From NCBI RefSeq assembly GCF_965641715.1, contig NZ_OZ282453.1: DNA of 64,000 nucleotides; one strand, 5' to 3'. Positions 2,323-36,728 of this stretch are shown piece by piece. Made by a program: the position numbers and the translations under genes. Source of the stretch: Escherichia coli (GTDB taxonomy: Bacteria; Pseudomonadota; Gammaproteobacteria; Enterobacterales; Enterobacteriaceae). Under the pieces are notes generated by a model, which was not told where the DNA came from, did no database searches, and saw only the letters and a program-made list of their open reading frames with translations. Every line of letters starts with the position of its first letter. Position 1 is the stretch's first letter.

Positions 2323-2333
2323 CCCCGGAAGCG

Positions 2334-11716: not shown

Positions 11717-12004
11717 GTTCTTTTTTCGCCCAATTATTTTCAAAAAAATTCCCGTGCACAAAAATTTGAGGAGGCGGTCGGTGTCCGGCAGGGACGGTTT
11801 TGTCCTGAAAACCTCCCCCCCCCCCTCTGACGGCCTCACCAGCGATTGCGAAAACATTCCATGACCTCGCGGTCACGGTCGGTTAATCGCTTCGCTGTGG
11901 TGCGTTCTGTGCGCCCTGTCCTGTTGGCTTTGTGCCCTGTCTCCTGTGTCTTCCATAAGTCACGCTGCCTTATCAGTCCACGTATCAGCCTGTTTTGCTC
12001 CTGT

Positions 12005-12445: not shown

Positions 12446-12744
12446 CAGTACACCCCTACATCACGATAAACCGACCAGAGCGCAGAAATAGCCATAGGCA
12501 GTTCAGACTGCTCCACAGGTGAAACCGCTTCCCTGTTCTCGTACAGGAAAGCGATGTACATCAGGCAACCAACACGTATTGCCGGGGTAAATTCCAGCCC
12601 GTCTTCAAAACGTTTCCCGATATGCTTCTGGCAGGCTTCCAGCGCCGCATCGGTATACATTTTCAGAAGTTCGCCCTCACCTGAGAAGTCATCAAGGCGA
12701 AGATGTGCCCTGACTTCATCAGGTGTAATTTTTTCTTCACTCAT
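12445..12744 (-). CDS. gp6-like head-tail connector (satellite)
   Basis: MSEEKITPDEVRAHLRLDD.. N-terminus; internal ATG, ORF track start 12825. Confidence 0.55.
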   Translation of the reverse strand: MSEEKITPDEVRAHLRLDDFSGEGELLKMYTDAALEACQKHIGKRFEDGLEFTPAIRVGCLMYIAFLYENREAVSPVEQSELPMAISALWSVYRDVGVY

Positions 12745-13951: not shown

Positions 13952-13952
13952 A

Positions 13953-14513
13953 TCACAACCCCGCCAGTTCAGCCCAGCGATGACGATTATTTCCTGTCGG
14001 GCGTAATTCAGGGTGCTGTGCAAACAACGAACGGTGGGCAATCTCCACGCCGGATTCGGGATAAGCAGGCATCGACGTTATCGTGATTTCACGGAGTTCT
14101 GCGGCGGTAACAGTGCGCAGATACGGTTTTTGCGCGATATTCCACTCTTCGCATAATGCGCGAAAGCCAAAGCTCATTCCTGTAATGTCGCCACGCTCCA
14201 CCAGCGTAAGCACATCTTTTCCAAGCTGGGTATCAGGCGGTGTCAGTTCAAAACGTAGCCCGGTGTTGTCCTCAGTCAGTACCAGTGTTCCGGATTTGGT
14301 GCGCCCCAGCAGTCGGGTATAGTCATGCTCATACAGGCAGCGCACATCATTACCCGCCGCCAGATAGTCAGCAAAAGCCCCCGGCGTGAACTGTTCGCGG
14401 AATTCGTCCCAGATAATTTCTGAAAGGCTGTTCCAGCGAACGGCATACCCCACCAGCTTTTTATTGCTGGCGGTCAGTTCAGATGTGCGGATTTCAAAAT
14501 CGGTGTTTTTCAT
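13953..14513 (-). CDS. Prohead protease (satellite)
   Basis: 186 aa, ..GYAVRWNS.. region matching HK97 protease pattern. Confidence 0.8.
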   Translation of the reverse strand: MKNTDFEIRTSELTASNKKLVGYAVRWNSLSEIIWDEFREQFTPGAFADYLAAGNDVRCLYEHDYTRLLGRTKSGTLVLTEDNTGLRFELTPPDTQLGKDVLTLVERGDITGMSFGFRALCEEWNIAQKPYLRTVTAAELREITITSMPAYPESGVEIAHRSLFAQHPELRPTGNNRHRWAELAGL

Positions 14514-14567
14514 CGGTGTACTCCATAAAGCTGAAAAAGGAGGCCGCAGCCTCCTCCTTACTCATGA

Positions 14568-15737
14568 CTAGCCAGCTTTCATTTCCAGAATTTTGATGGC
14601 GTTTGAATCCACCACACCACCGCCCAGATATTTATCCGTGTGGACCTTGTAGAATCCGGGCTCAGTAATGTTGTCCGGTCGGGTGCGAATCCCTGTTACA
14701 TGATCAACGATGAAATAACCACGACTGAAATCGCCAACCGCTAGCGGTGCTTTTCCTGCGCCGATGTCCGGCATGGACTCCAGGCAGAAAACAGGACGAC
14801 CAAGCAACATATCCGGCGCACCTTCTTTAAGGCTGTCGCGCCAGATATAATCGCCATTCTCATTTTTCAGCTTCTGTAGTGTCCCTGCCGTGCCCGAGTT
14901 CATCACCCAGACGGCATTTTTGCGGTATTTCGCTTTCAGCTTGTAGAGAATGTCGATCAGTTCGTCCGCTGTAATGGCGGTTCCACTTGCCGCTACCACT
15001 TTTTCAATGGTGCCAAAAGCGCGGGTTTTGTCACTGGTCGCCGCACGGGTGTAAGCCATGAAGCCTTTCGGCTTGCCGTTACCGTCGCCATTAACAAAAT
15101 CATCCTCTTCGGTGCTGGCGAACGTGTCGGCAATTTCGGAGGATAACCAGCCCAGAATATCCACCTCTGAAAAATCCAGGATTTCCTGCGTGGTTTTCGG
15201 GTAGGCGTAGATCGGATTCAGCTTGATGGTTACACGTTCAATTTTCGGGGTGTTGGTTTCACTACGTGCGCAGCCTTCTGTGCCTCGTCCTACAGTTGCG
15301 CCGCCAGTGGAAACCAGTTTCTGAAACTCATTTGATTTTGCGGTCTTCACGGTCGCGATCACGCGCATAACACTGTCATCCTGTAGCTGGCGCATGACTT
15401 CGCGATCAAGCTCAGGAATTACGGTATATCCGCCATCCCTGCCGCTGTCAGTGCTGGTGGACAGTGATCGCACATCTCCGGTTACGATGTAGTTACGCAA
15501 TTCATCAGATGATAATTTCTGGATGCCCGTTCCTGGCTTGCTGCGTTCTTCATCAGCCACAGACTCGAGGCGGTAAATTTCTGTGTCGAGGGAATCGGCT
15601 TTTGCACGCAGTTCATCAAACTGTTTGCCCTCGTCATCGTTCAGGCTGCGGTTTTCACTGTCGGCTTTTTCCAGCAGGGATCGCATCTGGTTTTTCAGGG
15701 CGGTTTTTTGCTGGCGGAGTTCGATTAATTTCTTCAT
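14568..15737 (-). CDS. Major capsid protein (satellite, HK97 fold)
   Basis: 389 aa, coiled N-terminal segment, homologous architecture to 5176..6381. Confidence 0.85.
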   Translation of the reverse strand: MKKLIELRQQKTALKNQMRSLLEKADSENRSLNDDEGKQFDELRAKADSLDTEIYRLESVADEERSKPGTGIQKLSSDELRNYIVTGDVRSLSTSTDSGRDGGYTVIPELDREVMRQLQDDSVMRVIATVKTAKSNEFQKLVSTGGATVGRGTEGCARSETNTPKIERVTIKLNPIYAYPKTTQEILDFSEVDILGWLSSEIADTFASTEEDDFVNGDGNGKPKGFMAYTRAATSDKTRAFGTIEKVVAASGTAITADELIDILYKLKAKYRKNAVWVMNSGTAGTLQKLKNENGDYIWRDSLKEGAPDMLLGRPVFCLESMPDIGAGKAPLAVGDFSRGYFIVDHVTGIRTRPDNITEPGFYKVHTDKYLGGGVVDSNAIKILEMKAG

Positions 15738-15974
15738 GAAGGTTTTCTCGTATTGGTTAAGATTCAGGACGTGAAACCAACACGGAGGGAGCGCCGCCCG
15801 ACACTCTCGGCATCTCGCAGATCAACCCGGCATCGCGCAGGGGGTCAGGCGGCATTGTGGCGGCTCACGTCTGAGTGCCACACGCCAACATATACATAAA
15901 AATCAGTATGTAAACATCAGCCAGAATCACCGAACAACCTGGAACAACCACGAACAAATAATTTACAAAACCTG

Positions 15975-16000
15975 AAAAAAAGACCTGGAGAAAATCCAGG
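15975..16000 (-). terminator. Intrinsic terminator upstream of satellite capsid operon
   Basis: Hairpin cctgga/tccagg followed by T-run on minus strand, directly after ORF 16012..16260. Confidence 0.5.
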
Positions 16001-16011
16001 CCTTTATCGCT

Positions 16012-16260
16012 TTATTGTTTCACTGGATCCCGCATTCTGCGTCTTATTTTCCACAGATATTCGATCATCGCTTCCACCTGCTCACGATTGGTTGCGAAAA
16101 TTTCCCCGGTCAGTGAGCTGCGCAGAAAATCATGATGATCCACAACAAACAACGCATCGGAAGAAAGCAGACGGCGATATTTTTTTGCTGTCGTGGTTTC
16201 CAGATCATCAAAACCATGAAACTTTTTATGTTGCTGGACTTCTTCAAATGTCACTGGCAT
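16012..16260 (-). CDS. Hypothetical protein
   Basis: 82 aa ORF, 4-nt overlap with upstream ProQ-like gene. Confidence 0.4.
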   Translation of the reverse strand: MPVTFEEVQQHKKFHGFDDLETTTAKKYRRLLSSDALFVVDHHDFLRSSLTGEIFATNREQVEAMIEYLWKIRRRMRDPVKQ

Positions 16261-16793
16261 GTATCCCCCTTTGCCGCCCGGCGCTGGCGCTTGTGCTTCT
16301 CATTCAGCGCCATCAGCCGCGTTTCTGCCTCCTGCTGTTCCTGTGGTGTCACTTCCCCACATGGCTGGCCTTTCAGGTCGTATCGTACCCCACCAGCAAC
16401 CAGGGCGCGGTAATAGCGCGGAGACTGCGCATAAGATGCCAGCGTCGCACGTAATGCCCCCGGCCCGAATGCCAGCCCCCTGACGGCGAGATCCTGCATC
16501 AGGTCGTCGAATATCCCCACCTTAAGCGGCTTCGGTGCTTCCCTGTTGAATAAGTCAGGCCACATCTCAGTGAGGCGGTTAACGCGCCTGCGGTTTTTGC
16601 GCTGGCGTTTGGTCATATGCCGCCACGGTGTCACCCCTGTGGGCTGCCCTTTGCGGCTCTGCTGTGCGTTCTGATTGCCGGGTATCACTTTATGCGCCGA
16701 TGTGGTTTTATCCCGCTCTTGCGCCGCCTGCGTCGTTTTCTGCGGCGTGCCGTAAATGCCTTTCGGTTTTCGGTTAATGGTCAGCTTTGTCAT
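16251..16793 (-). CDS. ProQ/FinO-domain RNA-binding protein with basic N-terminal extension
   Basis: ..PLKVGIFDDL..RATLASYAQSPRYYRAL..RYDLKGQPCGEV.. parallels ProQ N-terminal domain. Confidence 0.6.
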   Translation of the reverse strand: MTKLTINRKPKGIYGTPQKTTQAAQERDKTTSAHKVIPGNQNAQQSRKGQPTGVTPWRHMTKRQRKNRRRVNRLTEMWPDLFNREAPKPLKVGIFDDLMQDLAVRGLAFGPGALRATLASYAQSPRYYRALVAGGVRYDLKGQPCGEVTPQEQQEAETRLMALNEKHKRQRRAAKGDTCQ

Positions 16794-16957
16794 GCCTTCC
16801 CCTGTAATTACTCTGTTCGCTGTTGTGAATTAAAACGGTATGTTATCCCCGTACAGGTCATCGTGCTGGCCTGTCTGTTGTTTTGCCCTGTTCAGTGCGT
16901 CAGTGGCCTGCCCCTGTTGGCCTTTTTTGCCGCCCGGTCGCGCCGTTCTCGCACTGA

Positions 16958-17254
16958 TTACGCTGTCTGCGATGACCTGCCAGCCCTGCCGCGTTTCGCC
17001 GTTCTGCCCTGTCCACTGCTTACCTGCATGTTACCCGCCACGCTCACCAGTTCGCCTTTGCGGTGTTTTGCCAGTGCGTCGGCCTGTCTGCCAAACGCCA
17101 GGACGGATAACCACATCGTCGCCGTTCCGTCATCTGCCTGGCTGCATGGCAGGGGAACCGCCATACTCGCCATCGCCATTTGTGTTCCCTTGCTGGTGGT
17201 CTTTAACTGCGGGTCAGCCACCAGCCGCCCGTAAGCCGCTATCTGTGCTGTCAT
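16958..17254 (-). CDS. SSB-like OB-fold protein (tentative)
   Basis: 98 aa, ..GRLVADPQLKTT..TATMWLSVLAFGRQA..KGELVSVAG.. resembles short phage SSBs. Confidence 0.35.
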   Translation of the reverse strand: MTAQIAAYGRLVADPQLKTTSKGTQMAMASMAVPLPCSQADDGTATMWLSVLAFGRQADALAKHRKGELVSVAGNMQVSSGQGRTAKRGRAGRSSQTA

Positions 17255-17318
17255 GCTGTCTGCTCTCCGGTTTTAACGTTGATGGTTACGCTTGTTTACA
17301 CCCTTACGGTGAAATTCT

Positions 17319-17441
17319 GCGGGTTATAATCGCACTTTTGCGGGTTATAACTGCCGTTTTGCGGGTTACGTGCGGGTTATTGATTTCCTTTTTATTCATA
17401 CAGTTAATGCACTTATATACATGATAACCCGCATAACCCGC
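17319..17441. repeat. Iteron cluster, candidate satellite origin (4 direct GCGGGTTAT + 2 inverted, AT-rich centre)
   Basis: Immediately downstream of primase/helicase gene. Confidence 0.6.
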
Positions 17442-17464
17442 AACTTTTCACCTCACACAGGGGG

Positions 17465-19588
17465 TTAATCTTCTGCCTCAGGCTGGAACATCAGCACGTA
17501 AAAAACATGCTGCTTCCCCCCAATTTTGCCGAGCGCCTTTTTCTTGTAACGGCGATCGTTACCCGCTTCCAGCATTCCGGCAGCACTCAACGCGCGGGCA
17601 AAGTGAGACGGATTAAATCCCTGTGCTATCTCACCCTCAAATACATGCGGGAACGTGTAAAAACGGAACTCGTCATCTTCGTTTCTGATACTCCCCTTTC
17701 TGTATCCGGCAAGTTCTTTAATCGATAAATCACGCTCGTCGGTATTGGGCCACGGAAGGTATCTGCTGAATCCGAACGACGCTAAAAAAGCTTCTGCCTG
17801 TTCAACCATCTGTTTAAATTCCCTGTTACCCGTGCCGAACTCCTTCACCCAGGCATTAAAATTATGCTGTATGGCATCGCGGCATTCCTGCTCATCCCAG
17901 CCAGTAACATGACCTGAAAGCACAAGCGCGGCCTCCAGTATGGCAAATCGCTCCCCCACACGGTGAACCTGTTCGCCGTAGCTCTCCGGTATCAGGTTGC
18001 GCCACCGCTCACGGCATGTCCTTACCGTGTCCTTTGCCTCCTGCTGGTGTTCTGCCAGCCATTTAACCCACTCACGACCCGCCGCCCCGTGATTTTCTGT
18101 CCAGGCATCCTTTAACGCGTCTGCGTGCGCCTTTCCGGTGCTGTATTCGTGAAATTGCGTGGCTTTTTCCATCGGAACGTTAAGCAGGCGGACAAGCTGC
18201 CCCGCTTTGACTTTTATCCCCTCCGTTTTGAGGAATGTCTCAACGTCCATTTCTCCGGTGCTGATTGCCACCGTGCGCCAGTGTTTGATCTCCCTGTTGC
18301 CGCCGTCCTTCGCCCCCTGTAATTTCCCCGAACCGTTAAACAGCGTATAGGCTGACGTGGACACCTCCCGCGCGTTTCCGGCCTGGCCTATTTCATCCAG
18401 GGGTAAAAGCCCGTCATTGTGTGCCTCTGCTTCGTTGGCGATACCTAACGCTGTGCCGTACCAGGTCAGCCGCTGCGCGTCCGGCTCTCCCCATAAACTT
18501 GATGCGATGTTCTGTGTGGTGGTTTTCCCTGCCGATGACTGTTCGAAAAGATGTACCCCGAAGCCGTCAGCGCCCACCAGCCCGATTAATGGTGCGGATA
18601 ACGATACCGCCACACCCAGCATCATGGACGGATTACCACCAGCCAGCCGCGCAACGGTATCGCGCCAGCCCTCCGCCGTTCCTGCCACGGAATAGCCATT
18701 AACAGCAGCCGTTTTTCCGGTAAACAGGACTGGCTTTTCGCAATCACCAATGACCGAACCGTCCGGCATGATGTACGCGCCAAAATGCCAGCCCGTTGTT
18801 GTGCTTAACTGCCATTCCTCATGGCTTCCGCTTAACTGCATCCAGTCAGCCAGGATAGCCCTGTATTTACCGTTGGTTGTTACGTTCAGTCCGTGGTCTT
18901 TCAGCAACCGCCAGCCGTCACGGTCGCCAATGCCACCGCACGGAACCGCCATTGTGATGACTTCATGGTTTGCTAATTTTTTCCAGCGCATCACGCGGTA
19001 ATGCTCTTTACCGATTGTCCCCGTTCCCAGTAGTTCAAGCGGGGAACATAACCACGTCTCAGGCCGGATAATTTCGCCTGACTGCTTATCCACTTTTGGC
19101 GTTACCCAGAAAACACCATCGGCGCGACTTTCAACGCGGGGCTTTAATTCATCATCGCCCTGGATTTCTGTGATTTTTTTCTTTAAGGGCAACACCAGAC
19201 TTTCCCCGCGCTCGTATTCGTCTTTGAGGCGAGGCAACTGGTCGGATAAATCCGCCGGGCTGATGTCAGTTATCCCCGCGTATTCGTATACGGTCTTCAC
19301 GCCAGCCACAGCCAGCAACGTGACGATCTGTGTAAGGCTACGTTCAGTGATGTGCCCTGCGCGGTAAACACGCACACACTGACGGCTATCATCAATAATT
19401 TGATAACCGGTAATATCTTTCAGGTGTTCATCTGACAGAACGACAGGCGGCACATTGTCGGCGGCAATATGCTTACCTGCCCATTCCTGCCACTCTTTCG
19501 CATGGCTCCACGCATCACTACCCGCAAAGATGATAACCTCCGTCATTTTGTCGGCTGGCTGGTGCTTTAAGTTTGGTGCGCGCTTCAT
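17465..19588 (-). CDS. Primase/helicase-type replication protein
   Basis: 707 aa with Walker A (SSAGKTT), P4-alpha/PICI pri-rep-like position next to iterons. Confidence 0.65.
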   Translation of the reverse strand: MKRAPNLKHQPADKMTEVIIFAGSDAWSHAKEWQEWAGKHIAADNVPPVVLSDEHLKDITGYQIIDDSRQCVRVYRAGHITERSLTQIVTLLAVAGVKTVYEYAGITDISPADLSDQLPRLKDEYERGESLVLPLKKKITEIQGDDELKPRVESRADGVFWVTPKVDKQSGEIIRPETWLCSPLELLGTGTIGKEHYRVMRWKKLANHEVITMAVPCGGIGDRDGWRLLKDHGLNVTTNGKYRAILADWMQLSGSHEEWQLSTTTGWHFGAYIMPDGSVIGDCEKPVLFTGKTAAVNGYSVAGTAEGWRDTVARLAGGNPSMMLGVAVSLSAPLIGLVGADGFGVHLFEQSSAGKTTTQNIASSLWGEPDAQRLTWYGTALGIANEAEAHNDGLLPLDEIGQAGNAREVSTSAYTLFNGSGKLQGAKDGGNREIKHWRTVAISTGEMDVETFLKTEGIKVKAGQLVRLLNVPMEKATQFHEYSTGKAHADALKDAWTENHGAAGREWVKWLAEHQQEAKDTVRTCRERWRNLIPESYGEQVHRVGERFAILEAALVLSGHVTGWDEQECRDAIQHNFNAWVKEFGTGNREFKQMVEQAEAFLASFGFSRYLPWPNTDERDLSIKELAGYRKGSIRNEDDEFRFYTFPHVFEGEIAQGFNPSHFARALSAAGMLEAGNDRRYKKKALGKIGGKQHVFYVLMFQPEAED

Positions 19589-19899
19589 TTTGCCTTTCCC
19601 CGTTCACGAATAATTTCACGTACTGCCTTAATGCGTTCCATTCCTGTAACGCGCATGATTCTGTCGATGTCGCTTAATTCTGCTGGTGGTGCTTTACTTA
19701 CCAAGGTGAACTCCCTGTCAAAGCGCATATGTGACGACACGCAGGGATGCGCATAACCTTCGCGGATATAGGTCACACGAAAATCATCGACGGTTTTGAT
19801 CGTTATCGTGCTGCCGTATTTATCCTGGAAAATATCGCCGGGGCGGATTTCAGGCCGAGCGGGGCCGCTGGCAGTAAAGCCAGAATTTTTCTTTTTCAT
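19585..19899 (-). CDS. Hypothetical protein
   Basis: 104 aa, 4-nt overlap with primase gene. Confidence 0.4.
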   Translation of the reverse strand: MKKKNSGFTASGPARPEIRPGDIFQDKYGSTITIKTVDDFRVTYIREGYAHPCVSSHMRFDREFTLVSKAPPAELSDIDRIMRVTGMERIKAVREIIRERGKAK

Positions 19900-19904
19900 G
19901 TTTT

Positions 19905-20153
19905 TTACTCCAGAGGCAGCTTTTTAGCGGCGAGCTCAATATCAGATGTCAGAGAAACCTGTGTATTTGCCAGGTCTAACAACAAAGAAATAAGAATTTC
20001 TTCTCTGCTATCGGATTTATCGGTGCTAAGGCTGTTCATCCACATATTGACGACTTCCCTGATTTTTTTCGCAGAGTGCAGGGCTTCAAATGCCAGGTCT
20101 TCAATATCATGTTTATTTCGCATAATCGCCCCCGCCATTTTCACAATCAGCAA
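19905..20153 (-). CDS. Hypothetical protein
   Basis: 82 aa ORF in early leftward operon. Confidence 0.3.
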   Translation of the reverse strand: MLIVKMAGAIMRNKHDIEDLAFEALHSAKKIREVVNMWMNSLSTDKSDSREEILISLLLDLANTQVSLTSDIELAAKKLPLE

Positions 20154-20358
20154 TCAGGATGGCTTTTGCCTCATTCAGCGCCATATCAGCACTAAATTGC
20201 ATAACAGCCAGTGAGTGAGGAACGAAAGCCCCGGCATATTCTGTTTCGCTGGTGGCGTGCTTATGCGCCTTGTCTGCGATAACAGAAATATCAATCAGCG
20301 CGTGCATCAGCGTTTTGATGGCTTCGGCGGCTGCGTCCGGACGGGTGTTATTGCACAT
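20113..20358 (-). CDS. Hypothetical protein
   Basis: 81 aa ORF, first gene of leftward operon. Confidence 0.3.
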   Translation of the reverse strand: MCNNTRPDAAAEAIKTLMHALIDISVIADKAHKHATSETEYAGAFVPHSLAVMQFSADMALNEAKAILIADCENGGGDYAK

Positions 20359-20651
20359 GGCGCACCTCCTGACGAATACGGGCAGCGAATACCATCACGC
20401 AGCCAGCCGGGGATTGCTGGCGTGCTTCCTGTTCGCTAGTGGCCTCAATGGTAATCACACGCGGTTGTGCCGTGCTCAGGGCGATAAAACGCCAGATGTA
20501 TTTATTCAGGTTGTGCGAGTCCCGCCCTTGCGGGTGTGTGGTATGATTTAACATAGCTACCTCGATAATCTTGCTATCGTTGGTGGTTAGAAGCCCGGTT
20601 AGTGTTAGCGCACTGCCGGGTTTCGTCGTTTGTATTTCAATAAAACCATTG

Positions 20652-20729
20652 GTGTGTTTCATGTTATTTTGGAGTGAAACACACGTCAAGCCTTTTTTGT
20701 ATTTCTTTTTTGTGTATACTGAAACACAC
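20652..20729. promoter_or_regulatory. Divergent promoter/operator region with three TGAAACACAC half-sites
   Basis: Perfect 10-bp inverted repeat GTGTGTTTCA..TGAAACACAC plus third copy overlapping a TATACT -10. Confidence 0.45.
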
Positions 20730-20750
20730 CAAATTTGAGGAGTTTCAGTT

Positions 20751-21056
20751 ATGGCGACTACCAACAAAAACGCTAAATCACAATTGACCACCGTCAGAGT
20801 CCCCCACGATGTTATGGAGGGCATGGAATCCGTAAAACTGGACGGCGAAAGCAACGCCGGATTCATAGTAACCGCCATGCGCGGTGAGATCGCCCGCCGC
20901 CAGGCAGAAGGAAGCGGAGAAAATCCCCTGGTTTCTTCGCTCGATGCACTGGCGCAGGTGGAAAAAATTGGAGTCAAGGCTGCCGAGGAGATCGGGCAAC
21001 TCGTCACCGTCGCGCGTGAAGAACTCCAGCGACGCAAGGTCAAAGAGCAGGAATAG
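20751..21056 (+). CDS. Ribbon-helix-helix-like regulator (tentative)
   Basis: GAGGAG RBS; N-terminal TTVRVPHDVMEGMESV..AGFIVTAMRGEI pattern. Confidence 0.45.
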   Translation: MATTNKNAKSQLTTVRVPHDVMEGMESVKLDGESNAGFIVTAMRGEIARRQAEGSGENPLVSSLDALAQVEKIGVKAAEEIGQLVTVAREELQRRKVKEQE

Positions 21057-21113
21057 CCACTATCAGCGCCATAGTTTGAGGAACGCAGGCGCATTGCTTT
21101 ACAGGACAGCACC

Positions 21114-21293
21114 ATGAGCGACACAGAATCAACCAAAACACCATCACCAACTCGTAAGAGACGACGCAAAAATATAGCGCATGAACATGAATCAGAAAGA
21201 TTCGCACCTTGTTCGTTTGCTCTTGAGAAATTCCTTAAAGAGCACAGGAAAAAGCTCTCGTTGCAAACCTTGGAACGAACCAAATCTGACTGA
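21114..21293 (+). CDS. Small basic protein (59 aa)
   Basis: ORF below track cutoff, followed by two intrinsic terminators. Confidence 0.25.
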   Translation: MSDTESTKTPSPTRKRRRKNIAHEHESERFAPCSFALEKFLKEHRKKLSLQTLERTKSD

Positions 21294-21359
21294 TCACATT
21301 GCCCACCAGCCGCAAATGTGGCATTGTTGGTGATGCTTTTGTTTTCCCTTGTTCCCACT

Positions 21360-21388
21360 GGCGACCCTTTTGCGGTCGCCTTTGTTTT
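21360..21388 (+). terminator. Intrinsic terminator
   Basis: ggcgaccc tttt gcggtcgcc followed by T-rich run. Confidence 0.45.
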
Positions 21389-21483
21389 GCCTGTTATCCG
21401 GCAATAGTGGCGCTTCGTCACCTGTCTGATATAATTCCACAGCTTATATTCATTTTTTGCGCAGTAGGTTAATTGTTCGCAAG

Positions 21484-21515
21484 GGCGCTCCGGCAACGGG
21501 GCGCTTTTTGTTTTT
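21484..21515 (+). terminator. Intrinsic terminator with GCAA tetraloop
   Basis: gcgctccg GCAA cggggcgc then tttttgttttt. Confidence 0.4.
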
Positions 21516-21673
21516 ACCCACCAGCACAATAAAAATCTTCATTTTCCATTTTTGTAAAATTTCATGCTTTCCGGACGACTGGTCATATGTCATTTTTTAG
21601 CAGAAGATTTTGCCTTGCTGGTGGGTAGCTTCCCGGTCAACACGATGTACCGTATAATCAACACCGCGTGTGG

Positions 21674-22252
21674 TTACTGAATACGCTCACCAAAGTAAAA
21701 CTCAGGCTGGTATTCACGTATCAGCCTTTTTTCTTCTTCCTCCAGCTCACGCTTTTTGCGCTTACATGCCTGTAGCTCCCTCCCCTTCTCACTGGCACTT
21801 ATCTGGTATTGCTCTTTGCGGCGGGAAAAATCCTGTAATGCGCCCCACGGGATACCATAAGCCCCCGTTTTTCTGATACCCGGTATCACATTTCTGAATA
21901 CCCAGTTACTGAAACGATGAGCAAATGTGCCAGGCGTCGTTGCTTTGCGGCTGCGGGCTATTAGTTTGTAGAAACCTGACTCGGAGATAATGCTCATATT
22001 CTGATTTCCTCCGGGGGTGTAAGTTAAATTTACTCCCTTTTCGTCATCATCAAGCATCTGCAACGCCGTACGCGAATTGGTCAATTCCAGCGCAGCACAA
22101 ACATCCTTTGCAACAAACCACGGATCGCCGTTTAGATACACCACACGAACATCCACGCCATCAAAGCGCAGAACGACCAGATCACGAATATCACAGAATT
22201 TTTTCACATGACGTGCGTCACCCTTGCCCGTCACGGCAATATTTTTATTCAT
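21674..22252 (-). CDS. Bro-N domain protein (antirepressor-like)
   Basis: ..FDGVDVRVVYLNGDPWFVAKDVCAALE.. matches Bro-N consensus. Confidence 0.7.
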   Translation of the reverse strand: MNKNIAVTGKGDARHVKKFCDIRDLVVLRFDGVDVRVVYLNGDPWFVAKDVCAALELTNSRTALQMLDDDEKGVNLTYTPGGNQNMSIISESGFYKLIARSRKATTPGTFAHRFSNWVFRNVIPGIRKTGAYGIPWGALQDFSRRKEQYQISASEKGRELQACKRKKRELEEEEKRLIREYQPEFYFGERIQ

Positions 22253-22309
22253 TGCTTTTTACCTCACATACAAAAAACCCCGCATTGCGTGGTGCGGGGT
22301 TGTCGGTAA

Positions 22310-22588
22310 TTACTTATTGGCGTTTTTGTATGGGCTGTTTACTTCCTTTACTCCTGGCGGATGCATAACCCACCAGAGCACATCAGAGAGCAACCAGGAA
22401 ACAGACACTTTCCCTAAATGAGCACGAGCAGGAAATGCTCCCTCCTGTTCAAGTACCCAACGTCTGCTTCTTGAAAGCCCGGTACGATTGGCACACTCAT
22501 GTTCGCGTATACGGCGATCATACGGTTCGCCATGATCTTTCAGAATCTGAATGCGTTCTTCGGGTGTAGGATAAATAAATTTTTGCAT
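22310..22588 (-). CDS. AlpA-family regulator / excisionase-like
   Basis: HECANRTGLSRSRRWVLEQEGAFP..VSWLLSDVLWWV; internal ATG, ORF track start 22618 is TTG. Confidence 0.6.
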   Translation of the reverse strand: MQKFIYPTPEERIQILKDHGEPYDRRIREHECANRTGLSRSRRWVLEQEGAFPARAHLGKVSVSWLLSDVLWWVMHPPGVKEVNSPYKNANK

Positions 22589-22651
22589 AAAAATATCACC
22601 TATAAAAAAACCCGCCAAAAGACGGGTTGATTATATCTCATTTAATTTAGC

Positions 22652-22873
22652 TCAGGGTTTCCATTCACCTTTTACCCATTCCAGCACCTCAGATAAGCGC
22701 CAGACTTTTGTTTGTGGGCCAATACATATTTTTCGTGGAAATTTTCCTTCCTTTTCAAGTAACGATCTGTGTCTCCTGCCAAGAGCGGTTAACCATGCAC
22801 ATTCATCCTCCTTAATCATCCTGTCGATTGTTTCATCATTTTCAAGTTCTTCACGCGTAACTATTTGAATCAT
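22652..22873 (-). CDS. AlpA-family regulator / excisionase-like
   Basis: DECAWLTALGRRHRSLLEKEGKFP..VWRLSEVLEWV; start uncertain (22885, 22873 or 22819). Confidence 0.6.
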   Translation of the reverse strand: MIQIVTREELENDETIDRMIKEDECAWLTALGRRHRSLLEKEGKFPRKICIGPQTKVWRLSEVLEWVKGEWKP

Positions 22874-24074
22874 TACTGTCACCACTAATTTGCTTATTCA
22901 GATAGTCGTACCACCAGTTCATAGCTTCTTTTTTTCTGTCCATATACTGGCTTCTGTTATAAACCCCGGCAACACCGCCTAATGTGTGCCCAAGCAACTG
23001 TTCAACCACATTATGTTCAAAACCATGATCACTTAGTTTTGTGGCAAACACTCTTCGCATATCATGCGCCGTCCATTTCTCCGAGTGTTTCATCCTTTTC
23101 CATGTCTTACCGATAGTTACGCTTGCCGTACACTGACGCATATCAAACCCAATCACATTTTCTTTGTTACCTGTTATTTTTTTTAACGTAACTAACCAGT
23201 TAAACATGCCATCAGGAATCGGTCTGATTATTTCCCTGCCATTTTTGCTATGATCAGCGGGAACGCGCCATAATTTCTTATCAAAATCCCACTCTACCCA
23301 GGACGACAGTAATACTTCTGACAGTCGACAACCAAAAACTACCAGGAAACGTAAAATAATTCGGTTTTCATATGATAATTCGTGATTGTCATAATCAGTA
23401 TTAATACTTCGCCATAAATCTCTGATTTCATCATCTGTTAAAACCCTGCTTCTTCGCGCAGACTTTTTTCCCACATCACAGACCTCAAGATCATCAATTT
23501 CATGACTAATCGCGTATTTTCTTACCCTACAAAATTTAAGCGCCTGTTTTGATATACGCAACAAAGCTCCGGCCTGTACAGGTGCTACTTTTTTTATTTT
23601 GTCAAAACACTTAATCCACATAGATATAGAGCAATCACTAAGTGGTACATGACCAATCACCGGATAAATATGTTTACCAAAGCACTGCCTGATATGTTCT
23701 GCTCCCCTACGCTTATCCATTGCATAATTATCAAGCCAGTATTCAAGTGCCTCACGAACGGTAACAGGTTGCAAGGTGGCTTCCCGTTCAATTTTTATCT
23801 GAATCCGTGGATCTCTGCCCTCCGCAAGCCAGGTTCGACACTGATCGCGCATCTCTCTCGCTGATTTGAGACTCAGATCAGGATATTTTCCAAGTGTCAG
23901 CCAGATGGGCGCGGTTCCCCTTCCCGCCAGTCTGTAAAAGAAAACAAAACTAACACATCCGTATTTACTGACCCGTACCGAAAGCCCGTTACCATCAGCG
24001 ATGGTTTCCTGCCTCTCACTCCTGCGCCCAAGCAGGGAACGAAGTTTTTTATCGCTCAGTTTGTTTAGCGCCAT
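22851..24074 (-). CDS. Tyrosine integrase, P4 type (satellite)
   Basis: MALNKLSDKKLRSL.. N-terminus, C-terminal HxxR..Y catalytic region; ORF track start 24110. Confidence 0.85.
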   Translation of the reverse strand: MALNKLSDKKLRSLLGRRSERQETIADGNGLSVRVSKYGCVSFVFFYRLAGRGTAPIWLTLGKYPDLSLKSAREMRDQCRTWLAEGRDPRIQIKIEREATLQPVTVREALEYWLDNYAMDKRRGAEHIRQCFGKHIYPVIGHVPLSDCSISMWIKCFDKIKKVAPVQAGALLRISKQALKFCRVRKYAISHEIDDLEVCDVGKKSARRSRVLTDDEIRDLWRSINTDYDNHELSYENRIILRFLVVFGCRLSEVLLSSWVEWDFDKKLWRVPADHSKNGREIIRPIPDGMFNWLVTLKKITGNKENVIGFDMRQCTASVTIGKTWKRMKHSEKWTAHDMRRVFATKLSDHGFEHNVVEQLLGHTLGGVAGVYNRSQYMDRKKEAMNWWYDYLNKQISGDSNDSNSYA

Positions 24075-24094
24075 GTGATTTATAACCCGTTTTT

Positions 24095-24115
24095 GCAATA
24101 CACAGTGCAATACAC
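24095..24115. repeat. Tandem GCAATACAC motifs, candidate integrase arm-type sites (right arm)
   Basis: gcaatacacagtgcaatacac just upstream of int; copy at 9271..9291. Confidence 0.4.
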
Positions 24116-24245
24116 AAATGATGAAAACAGCCAGAACCTTCCAGAAAAAACAAAAACGACGAACAAGAAAAAATCTTTTTCTTTCATTTGGTTACTAAAA
24201 AAATCAGGACAGGTCGCACTGTTGTTACGGCGTGATGTTACTTTC

Positions 24246-24259
24246 TTTGTGAAAAAATT
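24246..24259. repeat. Satellite junction core, right copy (tttgtgaaaaaatt)
   Basis: First 7 bp identical to 9189..9195; encodes ..FTK of the terL N-terminal fragment. Confidence 0.55.
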
Positions 24260-25273
24260 CACCCGCGCCGAGACCTGCTCCTTCGCCTTTTTCGCCAGAC
24301 GACGCAGATCATCCCAGCGTTTACAGATGCCCAGGCCGGGATTCGCTTTCTGCCAGACCGTTTCATCAAACGGATCATCTCCCTCATCGAGCGTGTAAAT
24401 GATCGCAAAGTAAGAGTCGTCTTTTACCGCGCCCTCCACGTCACTGTTATAGCCACGCAATACCTTAATGGCGTAATCACGCTGCTCGTAACAAATCCCT
24501 TCCTTGTTAAACCCTGCCGTGGTGATACCAAATAAAAGGGACTGCAGACGGGCACCGGTTGCCGTTTCCAGAACGTCCCACACGTCACGGGTTTTATGTG
24601 CATGCAGCTCATCAATAATGGCGCAGTGGATGTTCAGACCGTCCAGGTTGTTTGCATCCGAGGAAAGCGGTTCAAATTTTGATGCGCTCTGCTCCTGGTA
24701 GATCGCCAGCTTGTTGAAATCAAATAACCGCCCGAGTGTCGACCGGGCTTTTCTGACCATATTTTTGGCGTCTTCAAACACGATTCTGGCCTGGTCACGC
24801 GTGGTTGCGGCTGAATACACCTCAGCTCCACCTTCACCATCTGCCCCCGTCATATACAGGCCGATACCCGATGACAGAGTTGATTTTGCGTTTTTACGGG
24901 CGACTTCGTTGTACGCCGTCCGGAACCGGCGCACCATCACCGGACGTCCGCTGCCATCGCTGCGCATGACAACTTCCCCGGTCTCTTCATTCACCAGCGG
25001 AATGACAAAACCAAAAATATTAATGAGGATAAATACATGCCAGTCCATCAACTCAATGGGCTGGCCTGCCAGCGCCCCTTTTACATGAGGCACAAATTTG
25101 TAGAAATTCAGGATGTGCTGCGCACGGGGTTCACTGAAATAAATCCCCCGCTCTTCGCCGTACTTCAGATCATCAAGAAAACGCTGGCAGGCCAGACGGA
25201 CAAATTCCCCAGCAACAATTTCTCCTGCAACAACACGTTCGGCGTAGCGGATCCCGTCAGCCACTTTTGCCAT
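24253..25273 (-). pseudogene. Terminase large subunit, N-terminal ATPase fragment (gene split by satellite)
   Basis: ORF 24080..25273: first ~340 aa align to TerL N-terminus (VARKNAKST, AIIDELH), then 54 unrelated residues read into the satellite. Confidence 0.8.
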
Positions 25274-29204: not shown

Positions 29205-29240
29205 CGTGAAATATATGCCTTTCAATCTACTTTTGCAACA
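29205..29240 (-). promoter_or_regulatory. Candidate late promoter (pR-prime-like) overlapping 3' end of Q-like gene
   Basis: TTGCAA, 17-bp spacer, TATATT on minus strand, ~50 nt upstream of the terminator. Confidence 0.35.
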
Positions 29241-29917
29241 CTTTGCTTTGAAAATGCCGCCTTTTGTTTTGAACGCGTTCTCATTACAAACAATAAAGCC
29301 CCACTATCCAGTCGGTAAAAAATGTGTTTCATTGCAACCCAGTGACGAGTAAATGTTTTGGACCAGTTTTTAGTTGTCACTCCCGCCAGTAATGCCAGCT
29401 CCTGGTATTCATAACCTTCCCCACCAAAAAGTTCTGCTTTTACTGCCTGCGCCGCCAGCCAGATTAATTTTTTCAGGCGTTCCTGCGTTTTCCCTGCAAT
29501 TTTTCTGGTACCGGATTGAGTATTAAATTCATTCCACGCCCACTGTGTTATCGCGATCTGATATTCCCAACAAATACTCCCGCTGTAACACCACAACAAC
29601 CAGGCTTTATGATGTTCTTCAAGAGACAGAACAGCCCGCCGCCACGATGATGTCGAAAACTCAACCGGACTGACCAGAGGAATTGACGTCCCCTTCGCCA
29701 GCGATTGCTTTCCCGGAATTGGTGGATTATCCCGCGTTATCATTTTTCCAGTCACTTCATCGCGGTACCGGATTTTTTTTCGCCTGTAACGCCCTGTATC
29801 GAACATGGCATTCTCTTGCCAGGCTTCAAGCTGACCTTTTGTTGCCCCACTCAAATCAGCGGTGGCGATAATGAGCTGCTCACGCACAAACTGTAAATAC
29901 TGGTTATTCATGCGCAC
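29222..29917 (-). CDS. Putative late antiterminator Q-like protein
   Basis: Call by position only: between rusA and late promoter/tRNAs/lysis; 231 aa. Confidence 0.4.
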   Translation of the reverse strand: MRMNNQYLQFVREQLIIATADLSGATKGQLEAWQENAMFDTGRYRRKKIRYRDEVTGKMITRDNPPIPGKQSLAKGTSIPLVSPVEFSTSSWRRAVLSLEEHHKAWLLWCYSGSICWEYQIAITQWAWNEFNTQSGTRKIAGKTQERLKKLIWLAAQAVKAELFGGEGYEYQELALLAGVTTKNWSKTFTRHWVAMKHIFYRLDSGALLFVMRTRSKQKAAFSKQSVAKVD

Positions 29918-33446: not shown

Positions 33447-33541
33447 TTCATTACCGCCCTTTCGGGCGGCCTCCTGATGTTCTGAGGGTGCAGAAATCCC
33501 TCCGGTTAAGGATTAAATTTTATTTACAACACTAAATTTAA

Positions 33542-33742
33542 TTATTCAGGCGCGCGAATCTGTTCCGCACAATGCAACAATGCTTCTGTCACTTCCTTAA
33601 GCGTTACGGTATCGGCATCATCCAGTCCTGCAACTTTTGCGTGCCTGGCAAACGCCGCGCAAAGGTCGTTAAACGCCACCGCCCGTACATCAGCCAGGAA
33701 AGCGTTAGCAGCAGCCAATTCCTGGTAGTCAATCCTGCTCAC
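33542..33742 (-). CDS. Hypothetical protein
   Basis: 66 aa ORF with overlapping stop/start. Confidence 0.3.
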   Translation of the reverse strand: MSRIDYQELAAANAFLADVRAVAFNDLCAAFARHAKVAGLDDADTVTLKEVTEALLHCAEQIRAPE

Positions 33743-34164
33743 TGCGCCGCCTCCTGAAAATTCCCCTGATAGAAAGCCAGTACACGCTGCATAACTTCAC
33801 TATTCCGGCACTCGCGACAGATTATGTTCAGACGCCTGTCATAGCGGCGTATTTCTCCGTCTGGTAACGACCAGATAAGGTCCGGATCAACCACAGATGT
33901 TTTTTTCTTCAGCTTTGCCCTTGAGAGTTTTTTGCGGGCATTTTGCCAGTCCTTACGAGCCTGTTCAGACGGGAATAACCCGTAACCAGAGTTGTATACA
34001 TCGCCACTGGCAACCAGCTCTCTGGCAAGAACGCTCATCAGATATCTTGTTGCCCCAGTTTTAGCTTCCAGTTGTCGTAACGTCTCGCGCCCACTCTGGC
34101 GTACGAGTTCAACAACCTGCCCTTTAATTTTTTCCCGCTCTTCTTGTGTAAAAACTTTTGCCAC
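33739..34164 (-). CDS. Hypothetical protein downstream of replication initiator
   Basis: 141 aa, basic, CRECRN motif; too short for lambda P or DnaC. Confidence 0.35.
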   Translation of the reverse strand: MAKVFTQEEREKIKGQVVELVRQSGRETLRQLEAKTGATRYLMSVLARELVASGDVYNSGYGLFPSEQARKDWQNARKKLSRAKLKKKTSVVDPDLIWSLPDGEIRRYDRRLNIICRECRNSEVMQRVLAFYQGNFQEAAQ

Positions 34165-34204
34165 AAGCCCTCCTGAAAATTACCTCATGACCAGAAATTA
34201 ACAC

Positions 34205-35281
34205 TTACCCCCTGAAGCCCGGCGGAATTTCGTTATCCGGTTCAGAAATATGATTCACACAACGCTGGTTGTTCGTGCCGCTTACCGGGAGCAACCAGGG
34301 GTTCTCAAAATTCCGGTCCGGTCCAAAAAACGTCGTCGCTCGCTGAACAAATTCCGTTCCCGTTTTCCCGGTAGCCGCCAAGTATCTTGCGTAACGCCTC
34401 ACGCCATCCAGCATGGCCTCTGGTGGCACCCCCTCGCGTAATCTGGCCTTCCAGGCACTGAAAGCGGATTTCTTCGGGTTTGCTCCGGCACGCAACGGGT
34501 ACTCCCGCCAGACCTGTTCGAACGCATCCGGATAATCCACTCGTCCCACAGACAGCCCGGTGTTTTCCGGGACTACCCGATCGGCTTTCCGCTGAATGGC
34601 GGAATCGGCTTCAGGCTGCTGCAGTTGGTGTGATTGCTCCGGCCTTGGGGTCATCACCTGCTGCACAGCGCCCGAATCGGCTTTCAGCGCATACGCTGAA
34701 TCGGCTTCCGGTGTCGTGCCTGCTGGCTGACCAGGATTGACGGTCTGAACATCCCCTGCCTGGTTCGTGGCGTTTTTTACGCCATGGACCATAGTGTTTT
34801 GATCTTCTTGATCTGTATCTTTATCTGTATCTTTATCTGTCGTGACTCGTCGTGACATGTGCGTGACATTTCGTGACGCGCCGTGACAATCGCCATTTTG
34901 TTCCCGCTTTCTTTCCCTCTCTCGCTGCGCCCTCTTGCGCTCTGCAGGAGATTTTGCGGTTTGCGAAATATTGCCGTTGTCCTCTTTAAGCACCTGGCGT
35001 TTTTCCCATCCAGTGATTAAATCACCATCAAGTACCCGCCCCTGCATCGTCTGCAAAATTGAATCAATTACCTCTTCTGTCACGTCGAGCGCACTTGCCA
35101 AATCTTCTGTCGTGACATCAATGTGACCTCGCGTGACATTTCGTGACGCGCTCACCAGGAGGTGGATATACACTGCCATCACTGTTGCAATTGGCTGCCC
35201 TGACACCCTGGCAATTGTTCGCCACTTAGGGTCATTTGGCATGTCATGCCATAATCTGAGCCAGGCGTTAGCCATACTCAC
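34205..35281 (-). CDS. Replication initiator (O-like / replisome organiser) with internal iterons
   Basis: N-terminal replisome-organiser-like region; CGTGAC and ATCTGTATCTTT repeats inside the ORF. Confidence 0.55.
   Translation of the reverse strand: MSMANAWLRLWHDMPNDPKWRTIARVSGQPIATVMAVYIHLLVSASRNVTRGHIDVTTEDLASALDVTEEVIDSILQTMQGRVLDGDLITGWEKRQVLKEDNGNISQTAKSPAERKRAQRERERKREQNGDCHGASRNVTHMSRRVTTDKDTDKDTDQEDQNTMVHGVKNATNQAGDVQTVNPGQPAGTTPEADSAYALKADSGAVQQVMTPRPEQSHQLQQPEADSAIQRKADRVVPENTGLSVGRVDYPDAFEQVWREYPLRAGANPKKSAFSAWKARLREGVPPEAMLDGVRRYARYLAATGKTGTEFVQRATTFFGPDRNFENPWLLPVSGTNNQRCVNHISEPDNEIPPGFRG
34811..34892. repeat. Candidate prophage origin: 12-bp tandem repeats plus five CGTGAC iterons inside O-like gene
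   Basis: atctgtatcttt x2.5 then cgtgac x5; second CGTGAC cluster at ~35110..35150. Confidence 0.5.
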
Positions 35282-35346
35282 CTCTTCTGATACCGAATCT
35301 TTTTACTCACGAGTTGCCGGAAGCGATTCGATATGGCTATTATCAC

Positions 35347-35772
35347 TCAATGCACTGCCACAGCATTTCCTGCCGGGCCACCACGGTTCATCTGATTGAA
35401 ACCGGCGATTGCCACTGCGACAAAATCATCGGCGTCTCTCACCAGTCGCTCCCGCGTCTCCACCAGCTCCCGAAAATAAGCTGAACTGTGGCTACGCATT
35501 CTGGCCACCAGCAAAGGTGGCATTGCCTTTTCGATCGCTGGTAACAACGCCTGAATTTTTTCAACTGCATCAGGGGTGTCTTTCTCTACCCAGCGGAAAA
35601 TTTTCTGGGTATTGCGAGCCAGGGCTTCCGGATGGCTGTCGTCGTACAGTTCAGGAAACGTCATACCCAACTCAAAATAAGCCTGGGTTATTCCAGCTGC
35701 CGGAACTTTTTCGCCATCAGGACGCGCCCAGGCATTCATCGCCATGCGGATGTGTTCATGCTTGATTTTCAT
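35347..35772 (-). CDS. CII-like regulatory protein (tentative)
   Basis: Position immediately downstream of cro-like gene; ORF track start 35844. Confidence 0.35.
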   Translation of the reverse strand: MKIKHEHIRMAMNAWARPDGEKVPAAGITQAYFELGMTFPELYDDSHPEALARNTQKIFRWVEKDTPDAVEKIQALLPAIEKAMPPLLVARMRSHSSAYFRELVETRERLVRDADDFVAVAIAGFNQMNRGGPAGNAVAVH

Positions 35773-35998
35773 GAATCCCCCCTTGGTTAGAAGGCGGATT
35801 ATGATCAGAACCGGGAATGACAACCGTCGGTATGTGTAACTCATATTTGAGCGCCCCGGCAGTGACTGCCTGAATTAGCAACGCCCATTTCCACGGAACC
35901 TCTTCCCCCCACATGCTGACTGTGGTTTTTGACGTTCCTAGAGCTGCGGCTGTTTTAACAACTCCGCCAAAATAGCCTAATACTTCTGATTTTTTCAT
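35756..35998 (-). CDS. Cro-like HTH regulator
   Basis: Small HTH protein (..TAAALGTSKTTVSMW..) divergent from cI. Confidence 0.5.
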   Translation of the reverse strand: MKKSEVLGYFGGVVKTAAALGTSKTTVSMWGEEVPWKWALLIQAVTAGALKYELHIPTVVIPGSDHNPPSNQGGIHENQA

Positions 35999-36089
35999 GA
36001 GTCGCTCCATAAAACTGAACGCCAAAAGTTTAATAATCAAAACCAAAGAAAGTCAAGAAACAAAACCATCTGTGTTTTAAAATCAAAAC

Positions 36090-36728
36090 ATGAGCAAGCA
36101 AACAATATCTGAACGCATAACCCAACGTATGCATGCGCTAAACCTGAAAGGCAAAGACCTTGTCAATGCCACTGGCGCATCAAAAGGCTCCGTAAGTCAA
36201 TGGATGAACGGTGGAGGAGCGCCGTCCTCGCGTTACATAAGTTCACTGGCAAAAATATTGAAAGTAAACGAAAATTGGCTTCTTAATGGAGGAGAGTTAA
36301 ATACAGGTGATTCGCTTGATCTATCTTTACCGCCGATAAAAACGGTTCCGCTACTATCACTTCAGCAGGCAGCAAGCTGGAGTGATTATATGAAAAATTC
36401 CTCAATAACCTCTTGTGTGCAGCTTGTCGGAGAAATCCCGGCCAATACCTTTGCAGTTGTTCTAGAGAGTGACAGTATGTCAACATCTGGTGGGGGAGTT
36501 TCCATCCCAAATGGTTCAACAGTTTTTGTTGATCCCGATCGAACCGTACAACCAGGAAATATTGTCCTTGCCTTACCCAAAGGGACCACAACACCTGTCA
36601 TTCGTAAACTGGAGATAGAAGGGCCGGATATTCTTTTAGTCCCCACGAATCCTCGCTACCCTTCAATTATGCTGGATGATCTATCTTGCATATTGGGCGT
36701 ATGCTTTAAAATTCAACAAGATATTTAA
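36090..36728 (+). CDS. CI-type repressor (HTH + S24 LexA-like peptidase)
   Basis: N-terminal HTH (..KGKDLVNATGASKGSVSQW..), C-terminal S24 domain. Confidence 0.8.
   Translation: MSKQTISERITQRMHALNLKGKDLVNATGASKGSVSQWMNGGGAPSSRYISSLAKILKVNENWLLNGGELNTGDSLDLSLPPIKTVPLLSLQQAASWSDYMKNSSITSCVQLVGEIPANTFAVVLESDSMSTSGGGVSIPNGSTVFVDPDRTVQPGNIVLALPKGTTTPVIRKLEIEGPDILLVPTNPRYPSIMLDDLSCILGVCFKIQQDI

Follow-up and report, generated by a model that had tools for sequence, protein, structure and literature searches.

In phage lambda, and likewise in P22 (gene 18) and other lambdoid O-type replicons, the replication origin lies inside the initiator gene, between the part encoding the DNA-binding N-terminal region and the part encoding the partner-binding C-terminal region, and in lambda a palindrome comes after the AT-rich region. 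The replisome organizers of Bacillus phage SPP1 (G38P/oriL) and of lactococcal phages of the TP901-1 type bind repeats that lie within the genes encoding them, after which a helicase or loader takes over. Satellite phage P4 carries octamer repeats (TGTTCACC) spaced by about one helical turn in two clusters, ori and crr, which are kilobases apart, outside the coding sequence of the DNA-binding domain, and are bound by alpha, a primase-helicase-origin-binding fusion unrelated in sequence to the initiator studied here. Iteron plasmids use Rep proteins of the RepA, pi or TrfA type, with tandem winged-helix domains and iterons of 17-22 base pairs (bp) at intervals of about 22 bp. Ori-lambda is arranged as iterons and then a high-AT region, the iterons being four dyad-symmetric units of about 18-19 bp that are each bound by an O dimer (PMC6022878). 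Here we analysed a stretch of 64,000 nucleotides (nt) of Escherichia coli DNA (assembly GCF_965641715.1, contig NZ_OZ282453.1), referred to as the window, which contains a lambdoid prophage. Comparison of its sequence with those of relatives indicates that the region 34761-35147 is very likely the replication origin of this prophage, embedded in its own initiator gene and bound by the product of that gene. The gene and the elements within it are the following:

34205..35275, minus strand: initiator gene, "phage replisome organizer", 356 residues, with an ATG at 35275 (the list of open reading frames (ORFs) starts it at a GTG at 35281)
34991..35275, minus strand: N-terminal winged-helix domain, residues 1-95, confident in the AlphaFold2 model
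35111..35147, minus strand: iteron array A, four direct (t)GTCACG units in gene orientation, one of them degenerate (GTCACA)
35079..35084, plus strand: single inverted iteron copy, CGTGAC in gene orientation, in the loop between helices 4 and 5
34898..34948, minus strand: basic helix, residues 110-126 (AERKRAQRERERKRE), a helix in the AlphaFold2 model and the candidate iteron reader
34841..34887, minus strand: iteron array B, five direct GTCACG units in gene orientation, at the start of the disordered linker
34797..34840, minus strand: AT- and purine-rich tract that reads (GATAAAGATACA)n in the direction of the gene, a candidate DNA-unwinding element
34761..34791, no strand assigned: imperfect palindrome with arms 34761-34773 and 34779-34791 (13 nt, 11 of 13 paired) and a 5-nt loop
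34328..34528, minus strand: C-terminal helical domain, residues 250-316 in the AlphaFold2 model, with a disordered tail after it
34208..34279, minus strand: last 24 residues (GTNNQRCVNHISEPDNEIPPGFRG), resembling the C-terminal tail of E. coli DnaT

The locus shares with lambda the placement of the putative origin within the initiator gene, the order of iterons, high-AT region and palindrome in the direction of transcription, a flexible linker that tolerates in-frame changes, and an organization in which the N-terminal domain and the origin form the specificity module while the C-terminal domain pairs with a loader. A lambda-like arrangement is also found in the relative L169, where a window-type N-terminal domain with its arrays is joined to another C-terminal domain and followed by a lambda-P-like gene. 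In contrast to lambda, no P gene follows the initiator gene of the window prophage, and the iterons are five plus four short asymmetric units (6-8 bp core) with a spacing of about 10.2 bp, distributed over two arrays, whose candidate reader is a basic helix placed after a DnaD-N-like winged helix. In addition, the Pfam scan of the 358-residue ORF returned no family at E <= 0.01, Phage_rep_O and Phage_rep_org_N (PF09681) included, so the window initiator is not regarded as a homologue of lambda O. The initial annotation had proposed that the iterons of an origin lie inside an "O-like" initiator gene on the lambda plan. As for the plan, the arrays, AT-rich tract and palindrome seen in homologues support this proposal; the term "O-like" holds by analogy, for the origin-in-gene layout, and does not extend to the protein family, the DnaD-N-like N-terminal domain or the non-dyad iterons. 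Even if the probable origin proves ordinary in function, the locus adds a clean new case of the lambda plan, assembled from components that are not homologous to those of lambda.

The window protein also fits the loosely defined group of "replisome organizers" with DnaD-N-like domains, since it shares with the SPP1 and TP901-1-type proteins the name given by NCBI and the DnaD-N-like fold. It differs from them in leaving PF09681 unmatched at the above threshold and in that the hosts of its family are Proteobacteria. We came across no account of SPP1/TP901-1-type systems that mentions this type of repeat, an arrangement in two arrays, the purine tract or the relationship between residues and repeat core presented below. 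The iteron-plasmid Rep type was considered and rejected on the basis of the 10.24-bp period, the 6-8 bp core and the single winged helix followed by a basic helix.

The repeats first noticed in this ORF were found again at base level. Array B consists of five copies of CGTGAC on the plus strand, starting at 34841, 34851, 34862, 34872 and 34882 (steps of 10, 11, 10 and 10 bp), while array A, located at a distance of about 265 bp, contains three exact copies (35111, 35132 and 35142) and the degenerate copy TGTGAC at 35122. Tandem Repeats Finder called a 10-bp array at 34839-34888 and confirmed the 12-bp tandem repeat, with 2.9 copies of the unit TCTTTATCTGTA at 34806-34840, abutting array B. The 64-kilobase (kb) window contains 36 CGTGAC hexamers, nine of which are inside 310 bp. 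When the whole window was scanned for identical hexamers spaced by 9-12 bp, the five-copy array B was the only run longer than three; among 50 shuffles of the window the longest run was three, reached in 3 of them. The same scan revealed no further iteron-like array in the prophage part of the window. Regarding the gene itself, the ORF 34205..35281 is present as annotated, but its likely start is the ATG at 35275 and not the GTG at 35281, because the resulting 356 residues match the length of the NCBI cluster representative. The SRNVT and DKDTD peptides that the repeats were said to mirror do occur in the translation (SASRNVTRG, GASRNVTHMSRRVTT and DKDTDKDTD). Judging from the reading frames, however, they are a by-product of the DNA repeats and not a feature of their own: units spaced by 10-11 bp cannot keep to one reading frame and occupy all three, and ASRNVT recurs in the peptide solely because a pair of units spans 21 bp, that is, seven codons. 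According to the AlphaFold2 model, the codons of array A correspond to the end of helix 3 and the loop of residues 46-55.

This arrangement implies dual coding, in which the putative binding sites of a protein are written in its own loop and linker codons. Alleles of E. coli differ by 7 additional residues at array A (21 bp, two units), 11 additional residues at array B (33 bp) and 4 fewer residues at the tandem tract (12 bp). Natural alleles (P0002, P0003, P0004, P0020 and P0022; L169) carry between 4 and 6 copies in array A and a variable number of tandem-tract units, and the changes always preserve the frame, in steps of 21, 33 or 12 bp. The number of iterons changes only by frame-preserving steps because the sites sit inside the codons of the protein. 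In one allele, P0020 (302 residues), most of array B is missing together with the AT tract and part of the linker, and this allele may be origin-defective.

The N-terminal 130 residues and the C-terminal half of the protein gave different relatives in tblastn searches. Homologues were collected in two sets, 80 diverse viral contigs (66 non-redundant genes) and later 80 more (67 non-redundant genes), and scanned with query alignments that omitted or demoted the E. coli sequence, as a window-led alignment gave 80 window-identical copies. The layout recurred at matching gene offsets in about 130 diverse homologous genes, and arrays were present in phages of Pseudomonas, Aeromonas and Ralstonia as well as in about 130 metagenomic viral contigs. 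The initial annotation had named the absence of the repeats from homologous initiator genes as evidence against an origin; instead, periodic repeats stood at matching offsets in the homologues. In 44 of 66 genes the periodic arrays of exact hexamers exceeded every 600-nt control window of their own locus, in which the maximum was 1-2. Array B, at nt ~340-440 of the gene, was nearly universal, and array A, at nt ~128-200, was restricted to some clades. Its absence from the whole clade of Cy-LDV1-like genes indicates that array A is dispensable for the basic plan.

Across homologues the units followed the consensus (a)(t)G-NN-ACG(c), with an invariant hexamer core and variable flanking bases. 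They were most often spaced by 10 bp (100 cases), followed by 11 (40), 9 (18) and 12 bp (9), giving a mean of 10.24 bp, equivalent to one helical turn, and copies were found in all three reading frames. The cores were clade-specific (GTCACG, GCAACG, GTGACG, GAAACG, GTAACG, CGAACG or GGAACG) and arrays A and B of one gene always shared the same core. For example, Pseudomonas phage phita81A, whose N-terminal domain is 70% identical, presented GTCACG arrays at both places and then gataaagatacagaagaagagaaagag; Ralstonia phage Hennie, with 38% identity, kept the layout with the core GCAACG, followed by agagaagagaagagtagagaagagg; and Aeromonas phage pAEv1818 had the window core at the array A position. 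The inverted copy was found at the equivalent place in L001 (CGTGAC) and in Hennie (CGTTGC, which fits Hennie's own core). Since copies occur in all frames, lie in a loop or disordered linker and differ among alleles by whole units, the sequence comparison shows selection acting on the DNA and not on the peptide.

The AT/purine tract coincides with the GC minimum of the window gene (0.30 in 40 bp). Among the 66 non-redundant homologous genes, the purine-richest 30-nt window had a median position of nt 423 (interquartile range 411-440), directly after array B; it contained at least 27 purines out of 30 in 44 genes, topped the rest of the locus in 55, and had an AT content of 59% versus 38% for the gene. 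The tract kept its DNA sequence across different frames (40, 19 and 7 genes). Its commonest form was CTAGAGAAGAGAAGAGTAGAGAAGA, and the clades nearest to the window had (CAGATA)n or (CAGATAAAGATA)n, nearly the window tract, which was seen even in distant relatives. The palindrome lies 5-15 bp beyond the AT-rich tract. Within the 70 nt that follow the tract, 62% of the 66 genes had a stem of at least 7 paired bases, versus 13.7% of 2169 control windows (Mann-Whitney p = 3e-17). The sequence of this GC-rich palindrome differed from gene to gene. Both tract and palindrome are conserved by position and not by sequence. The automatic scans for purine windows and hairpins misplaced the tract of the window itself, taking the codons of the basic helix; the window tract and palindrome rest on repeat finding, the GC profile and the listing of inverted repeats, and not on the family-wide scans. 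A terminator function of the palindrome was considered and rejected because no upstream antisense promoter was predicted. Promoter-like and terminator-like matches in the region were not above the shuffle expectation, and Rfam gave no RNA family in 33500-36200. The tract also contains two GATC (Dam) sites, at 34801 and 34810, 9 bp apart, as GATCTTCTT and GATCTGTATCTTT, the second of which resembles the GATCTnTTnTTTT 13-mers of oriC. Such GATC pairs were only partially conserved, being present in the tract of the relative L171 and absent from L169.

In order to relate the clade-specific cores to the protein, we calculated the mutual information between alignment columns and core type. This analysis picked residues 114 and 117, which lie in the basic helix between R113 and R118, both invariant or nearly so among homologues (in the window, K114 is encoded at 34934-34936 and Q117 at 34925-34927). 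In 49 of 51 training genes the core agreed with the residue at 114, as follows:

K114 with Q117: GTCACG (K114 in 18 of 19 training genes)
S114 with H, R, F or Y117: GCAACG (14 of 14 training genes)
T114 with Y117: GTGACG (8 of 9 training genes)
V114 with F or Y117: GAAACG (6 of 6 training genes)
V114 with H, W or S117: GTAACG (3 of 3 genes, including L171, which served as the prediction test)
A114 with W117: CGAACG (one training gene, L167, and all A/W genes of the test set)

None of 20000 permutations within clusters, a coarse correction for phylogeny, reached the observed mutual information, and the core types were polyphyletic, each being represented in at least two of the four N-domain clusters. 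For P0102, the core G(T/A)AACG was predicted from the protein sequence alone (V114), and the DNA of L171 confirmed it, with GTAACGC in both arrays. The association also held in the independent set (67 non-redundant genes): all 6 K/Q genes carried GTCACG and all 12 V genes G(T/A)AACG, every A114/W117 gene had a (C)GAACGC-type core, and a K-W-K118 variant was associated with GGAACG. In this last clade the iterons come early and the regular expression took iteron-encoded peptides, so those genes were re-read by eye. Iteron copies were rejected as the source of the codons for residues 114 and 117, as these codons were not iteron-like in the training set. The repeats are taken as origin iterons because the arrays go beyond chance, their positions are conserved and their core co-varies with the residues of the candidate reader.

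Whether two residues of one basic helix specify the variable bases of the G-NN-ACG iteron, forming a simple evolvable code, is on these comparative data about an even chance. If so, replicon specificity could be re-set by one or two substitutions together with a concerted change of some 9-25 repeats, and this reset would also govern compatibility between co-resident prophages and satellites. Origin specificity would then be predictable from sequence, indicating which prophages share it, and the modules would be candidate parts from which orthogonal origins and replicons could be engineered. For the window locus alone the outcome is rather unremarkable; more interest attaches to the code that runs across the family.

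The N-terminal domain, arrays and tract travelled together while their partners varied, as would be expected if the N-terminal part of the product binds the repeats. In E. coli, mosaic junctions were located at ~34800-34818, just past the AT tract. In strain NCTC86, the N-terminal domain of the window, with both arrays and the tract, is fused to a DnaT-like single-stranded-DNA-binding C-terminal domain and followed by a lambda-P-like gene; relatives with another C-terminal domain carry this DnaT-like domain (PF17948). Conversely, in O157:H7 strain SS52 (L170, NZ_CP010304.1; gene 1499-2590, minus strand) the window's C-terminal domain stands behind an unrelated N-terminal domain. The SS52 initiator presents three copies of AAGGGGCTT in the region encoding the N-terminal domain and three in the linker, and then a purine-rich (GAACAG)n tract, suggesting that a layout with two arrays and the origin inside the gene may extend to initiators of enterobacterial prophages in general. 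The gene after the initiator encodes a DnaC/IstB-like ATPase in SS52 and L171, a DnaB-type helicase in Hennie, Cy-LDV1 and pAEv1818, and in phita81A a 609-residue protein (a related record, P7869, labels it primosomal protein I/DNA primase/helicase); no such gene follows in the window. One origin-recognition module thus appears to be combined with many helicase-delivery solutions.

A mechanism consistent with these observations can be proposed. Derepression would allow rightward early transcription of the cro-like gene, the ydaT/cII-like gene and then the initiator gene, yielding the 356-residue protein, whose winged helix and basic helix (ER-K114-RA-Q117-RER) would bind the (t)GTCACG(c) units. 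As these units are one helical turn apart, successive protomers would lie on one face of the DNA, five of them on array B and four plus one inverted on array A, the two arrays perhaps being bridged across the intervening ~265 bp. The oligomer on array B would then stress and open the adjacent AT/purine tract, beside which the palindrome would act as a third conserved element. Finally, the C-terminal domain, on its disordered linker of about 120 residues, would bring in the helicase, and theta replication would follow. Because the prophage encodes no loader or helicase after the initiator gene, the helicase would have to come from host DnaB-DnaC.

Several points weigh against the proposal that the region is an origin bound by its own product. 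We infer from comparisons the binding of the repeats by the protein, the unwinding, the recruitment of the helicase and the firing of the origin; the scheme leaves unexplained how the helicase is recruited without a phage loader, and it assigns no role to array A. A few homologues (e.g. L005, L122, L133 and L161) presented no clear array. The codons of the basic helix lie just upstream of array B, ~10-50 bp away, so that a recombined cassette would carry both, and the residue-core association could partly reflect this physical linkage; in addition, permutation within clusters removes phylogeny only coarsely. We also found no description of the origin of this initiator family or of the residue-core relationship in the open-access literature, which is not proof of novelty.

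Among other explanations, the one that best survives is that the arrays serve mainly for control (autorepression, "handcuffing", or incompatibility with and exclusion of related phages), initiation taking place elsewhere or only one array belonging to the origin. There are two separate arrays, one of which the Cy-LDV1-like clade lacks, iteron plasmids keep extra arrays for control, and the residue-core code argues for binding by the protein and not for what this binding does. Against it, the prophage part of the window offered no other iteron-like array. Array B occurs almost throughout the family, and in every case the AT/purine tract and a palindrome come after it, an origin-type order as in ori-lambda (PMC6022878); we consider a predominantly regulatory role unlikely. 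Binding of the repeats by another factor, such as a host protein, the YdaT-like or DUF977 protein or the repressor, is less probable still. The neighbouring ydaT-like and DUF977 genes have no known function, but across clades and in the independent test set the core changes together with positions 114 and 117 of the initiator's own basic helix, and the N-terminal domain stays joined to the arrays while the downstream genes (DUF977, P-like, DnaC-like, DnaB-like) vary. That the repeats serve the protein, through selected SRNVT and DKDTD peptides, or result from neutral slippage in a tolerant linker is hardly credible: although the motifs are real, disordered linkers tolerate and gather low-complexity repeats and a second duplication (EADSA...) exists further down the linker, the 10-11 bp units run through all three frames with an invariant core and variable flanks, the cores differ by clade at equivalent positions while being the same in both arrays of a gene, the DNA sequence of the purine tract is retained in different frames, and the arrays are far stronger than the control windows.

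Taken as an origin bound by its own product, the locus gains interest from its distribution. The gene was present at a coverage of at least 80% in 1646 of 5426 complete E. coli genomes (~30%), and phages of Pseudomonas, Aeromonas and Ralstonia, like many viral contigs from the environment, contain relatives of the module. For all of these, the comparative data provide a base-level map of the probable origin (two iteron arrays, unwinding tract and palindrome) and a specific hypothesis of which helix reads the iterons, and how.

The identity of the initiator was supported by PHROG 3729 ("replication initiation protein"), whose 356-position profile matched residues 3-358 along positions 1-356 (E = 4.2e-255), and by 98% identity to an NCBI cluster that comprises 5786 sequences under the name "phage replisome organizer". 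The gene was 100% identical in E. coli strain 2009C-3133, and the isolated phages vB_EcoS-813R8, Tritos and Evi carried the same module with 95-98% DNA identity. In the predicted model, the N-terminal domain has a DnaD-N-like fold with a single winged helix, followed by the basic helix and by a disordered linker (residues 127-248) that has array B and the AT tract at its start. The C-terminal domain, presumed to contact the helicase-loading machinery, gave a match to PHROG 1701, "DnaD-like helicase loader" (E = 2e-62). Further along the linker, a direct repeat (34580-34615 and 34676-34711, 96-bp spacing, 78% identical, with two (A/G)ATCGGCTT(T/C) motifs per copy) encodes the EADSA...KADS peptide repeats, at which E. 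coli alleles show deletions of 8 and 32 residues; it is probably a peptide-level duplication.

The last 24 residues of the initiator (..SEPDNEIPPGFRG) match the tail at the C-terminus of E. coli DnaT (primosomal protein I), which is why some databases name relatives "primosomal protein I". Identity with DnaT was rejected, as NCBIfam NF002770 covered residues 335-358 only, with 19.2 bits versus a cut-off of 201, and neither the N-terminal domain nor the three-helix single-stranded-DNA-binding domain of DnaT was detected in the window protein. Similarly, the PDB sequence search matched 6aep, 2ru8 and 9zbt in the tail only, plus a chance match to a designed repeat protein. The phage tail is close to the extreme C-terminus of host DnaT (..SEPDNHIPPGFRG), the rest of DnaT being absent, which hints at mimicry of a host primosome contact. 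The DnaT tail was not discussed in the restart review or in the 2026 preprimosome structure paper.

The initiator gene is part of the early-right module, lambdoid or Rac-like (cI/cro/ydaT), of an E. coli lambdoid prophage. Its surroundings are:

36090-36728, plus strand: S24/helix-turn-helix repressor gene
35756-36046, minus strand: P22-Cro-like gene
35347-35844, minus strand: YdaT/CII-like gene
33739-34164, minus strand: DUF977/LygF gene, downstream of the initiator gene
29222-29917: Q antiterminator gene

Between 29.9 and 34.2 kb, the ORF list, Pfam and PHROG revealed no P, DnaC or DnaB gene, only DUF977/LygF and small ORFs.

Elsewhere in the window, a satellite-like island (~9200-24110), similar to capsid-forming phage-inducible chromosomal islands, was located between two fragments of the prophage large terminase gene (terL), which therefore appears to be split by it. 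The island accounts for the word "helper" in the initial annotation, although no finding of this analysis, in which no test was directed at the question, shows a helper relationship. The island genes and the two fragments are:

22851-24110: island integrase
21674-22252: island Bro-N protein
17465-19588: island DUF927 primase-like protein
16251-16793: island ProQ/FinO-like protein
14568-15737: island HK97-type capsid
13953-14513: island prohead protease
12737-14041: island portal
9715-11376: island large terminase
24080-25273 and 8459-9184: prophage terL fragments, N-part and nuclease part, respectively

Besides the 12-bp tandem tract, the only other periodic hexamer run in the window was GAACAA, present three times with a 10-bp spacing at 15932-15952, in the intergenic region between the island capsid and ProQ/FinO-like genes. 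This run may represent a small iteron array belonging to the island or a product of chance, since runs of three appeared in 3 of the 50 shuffles.

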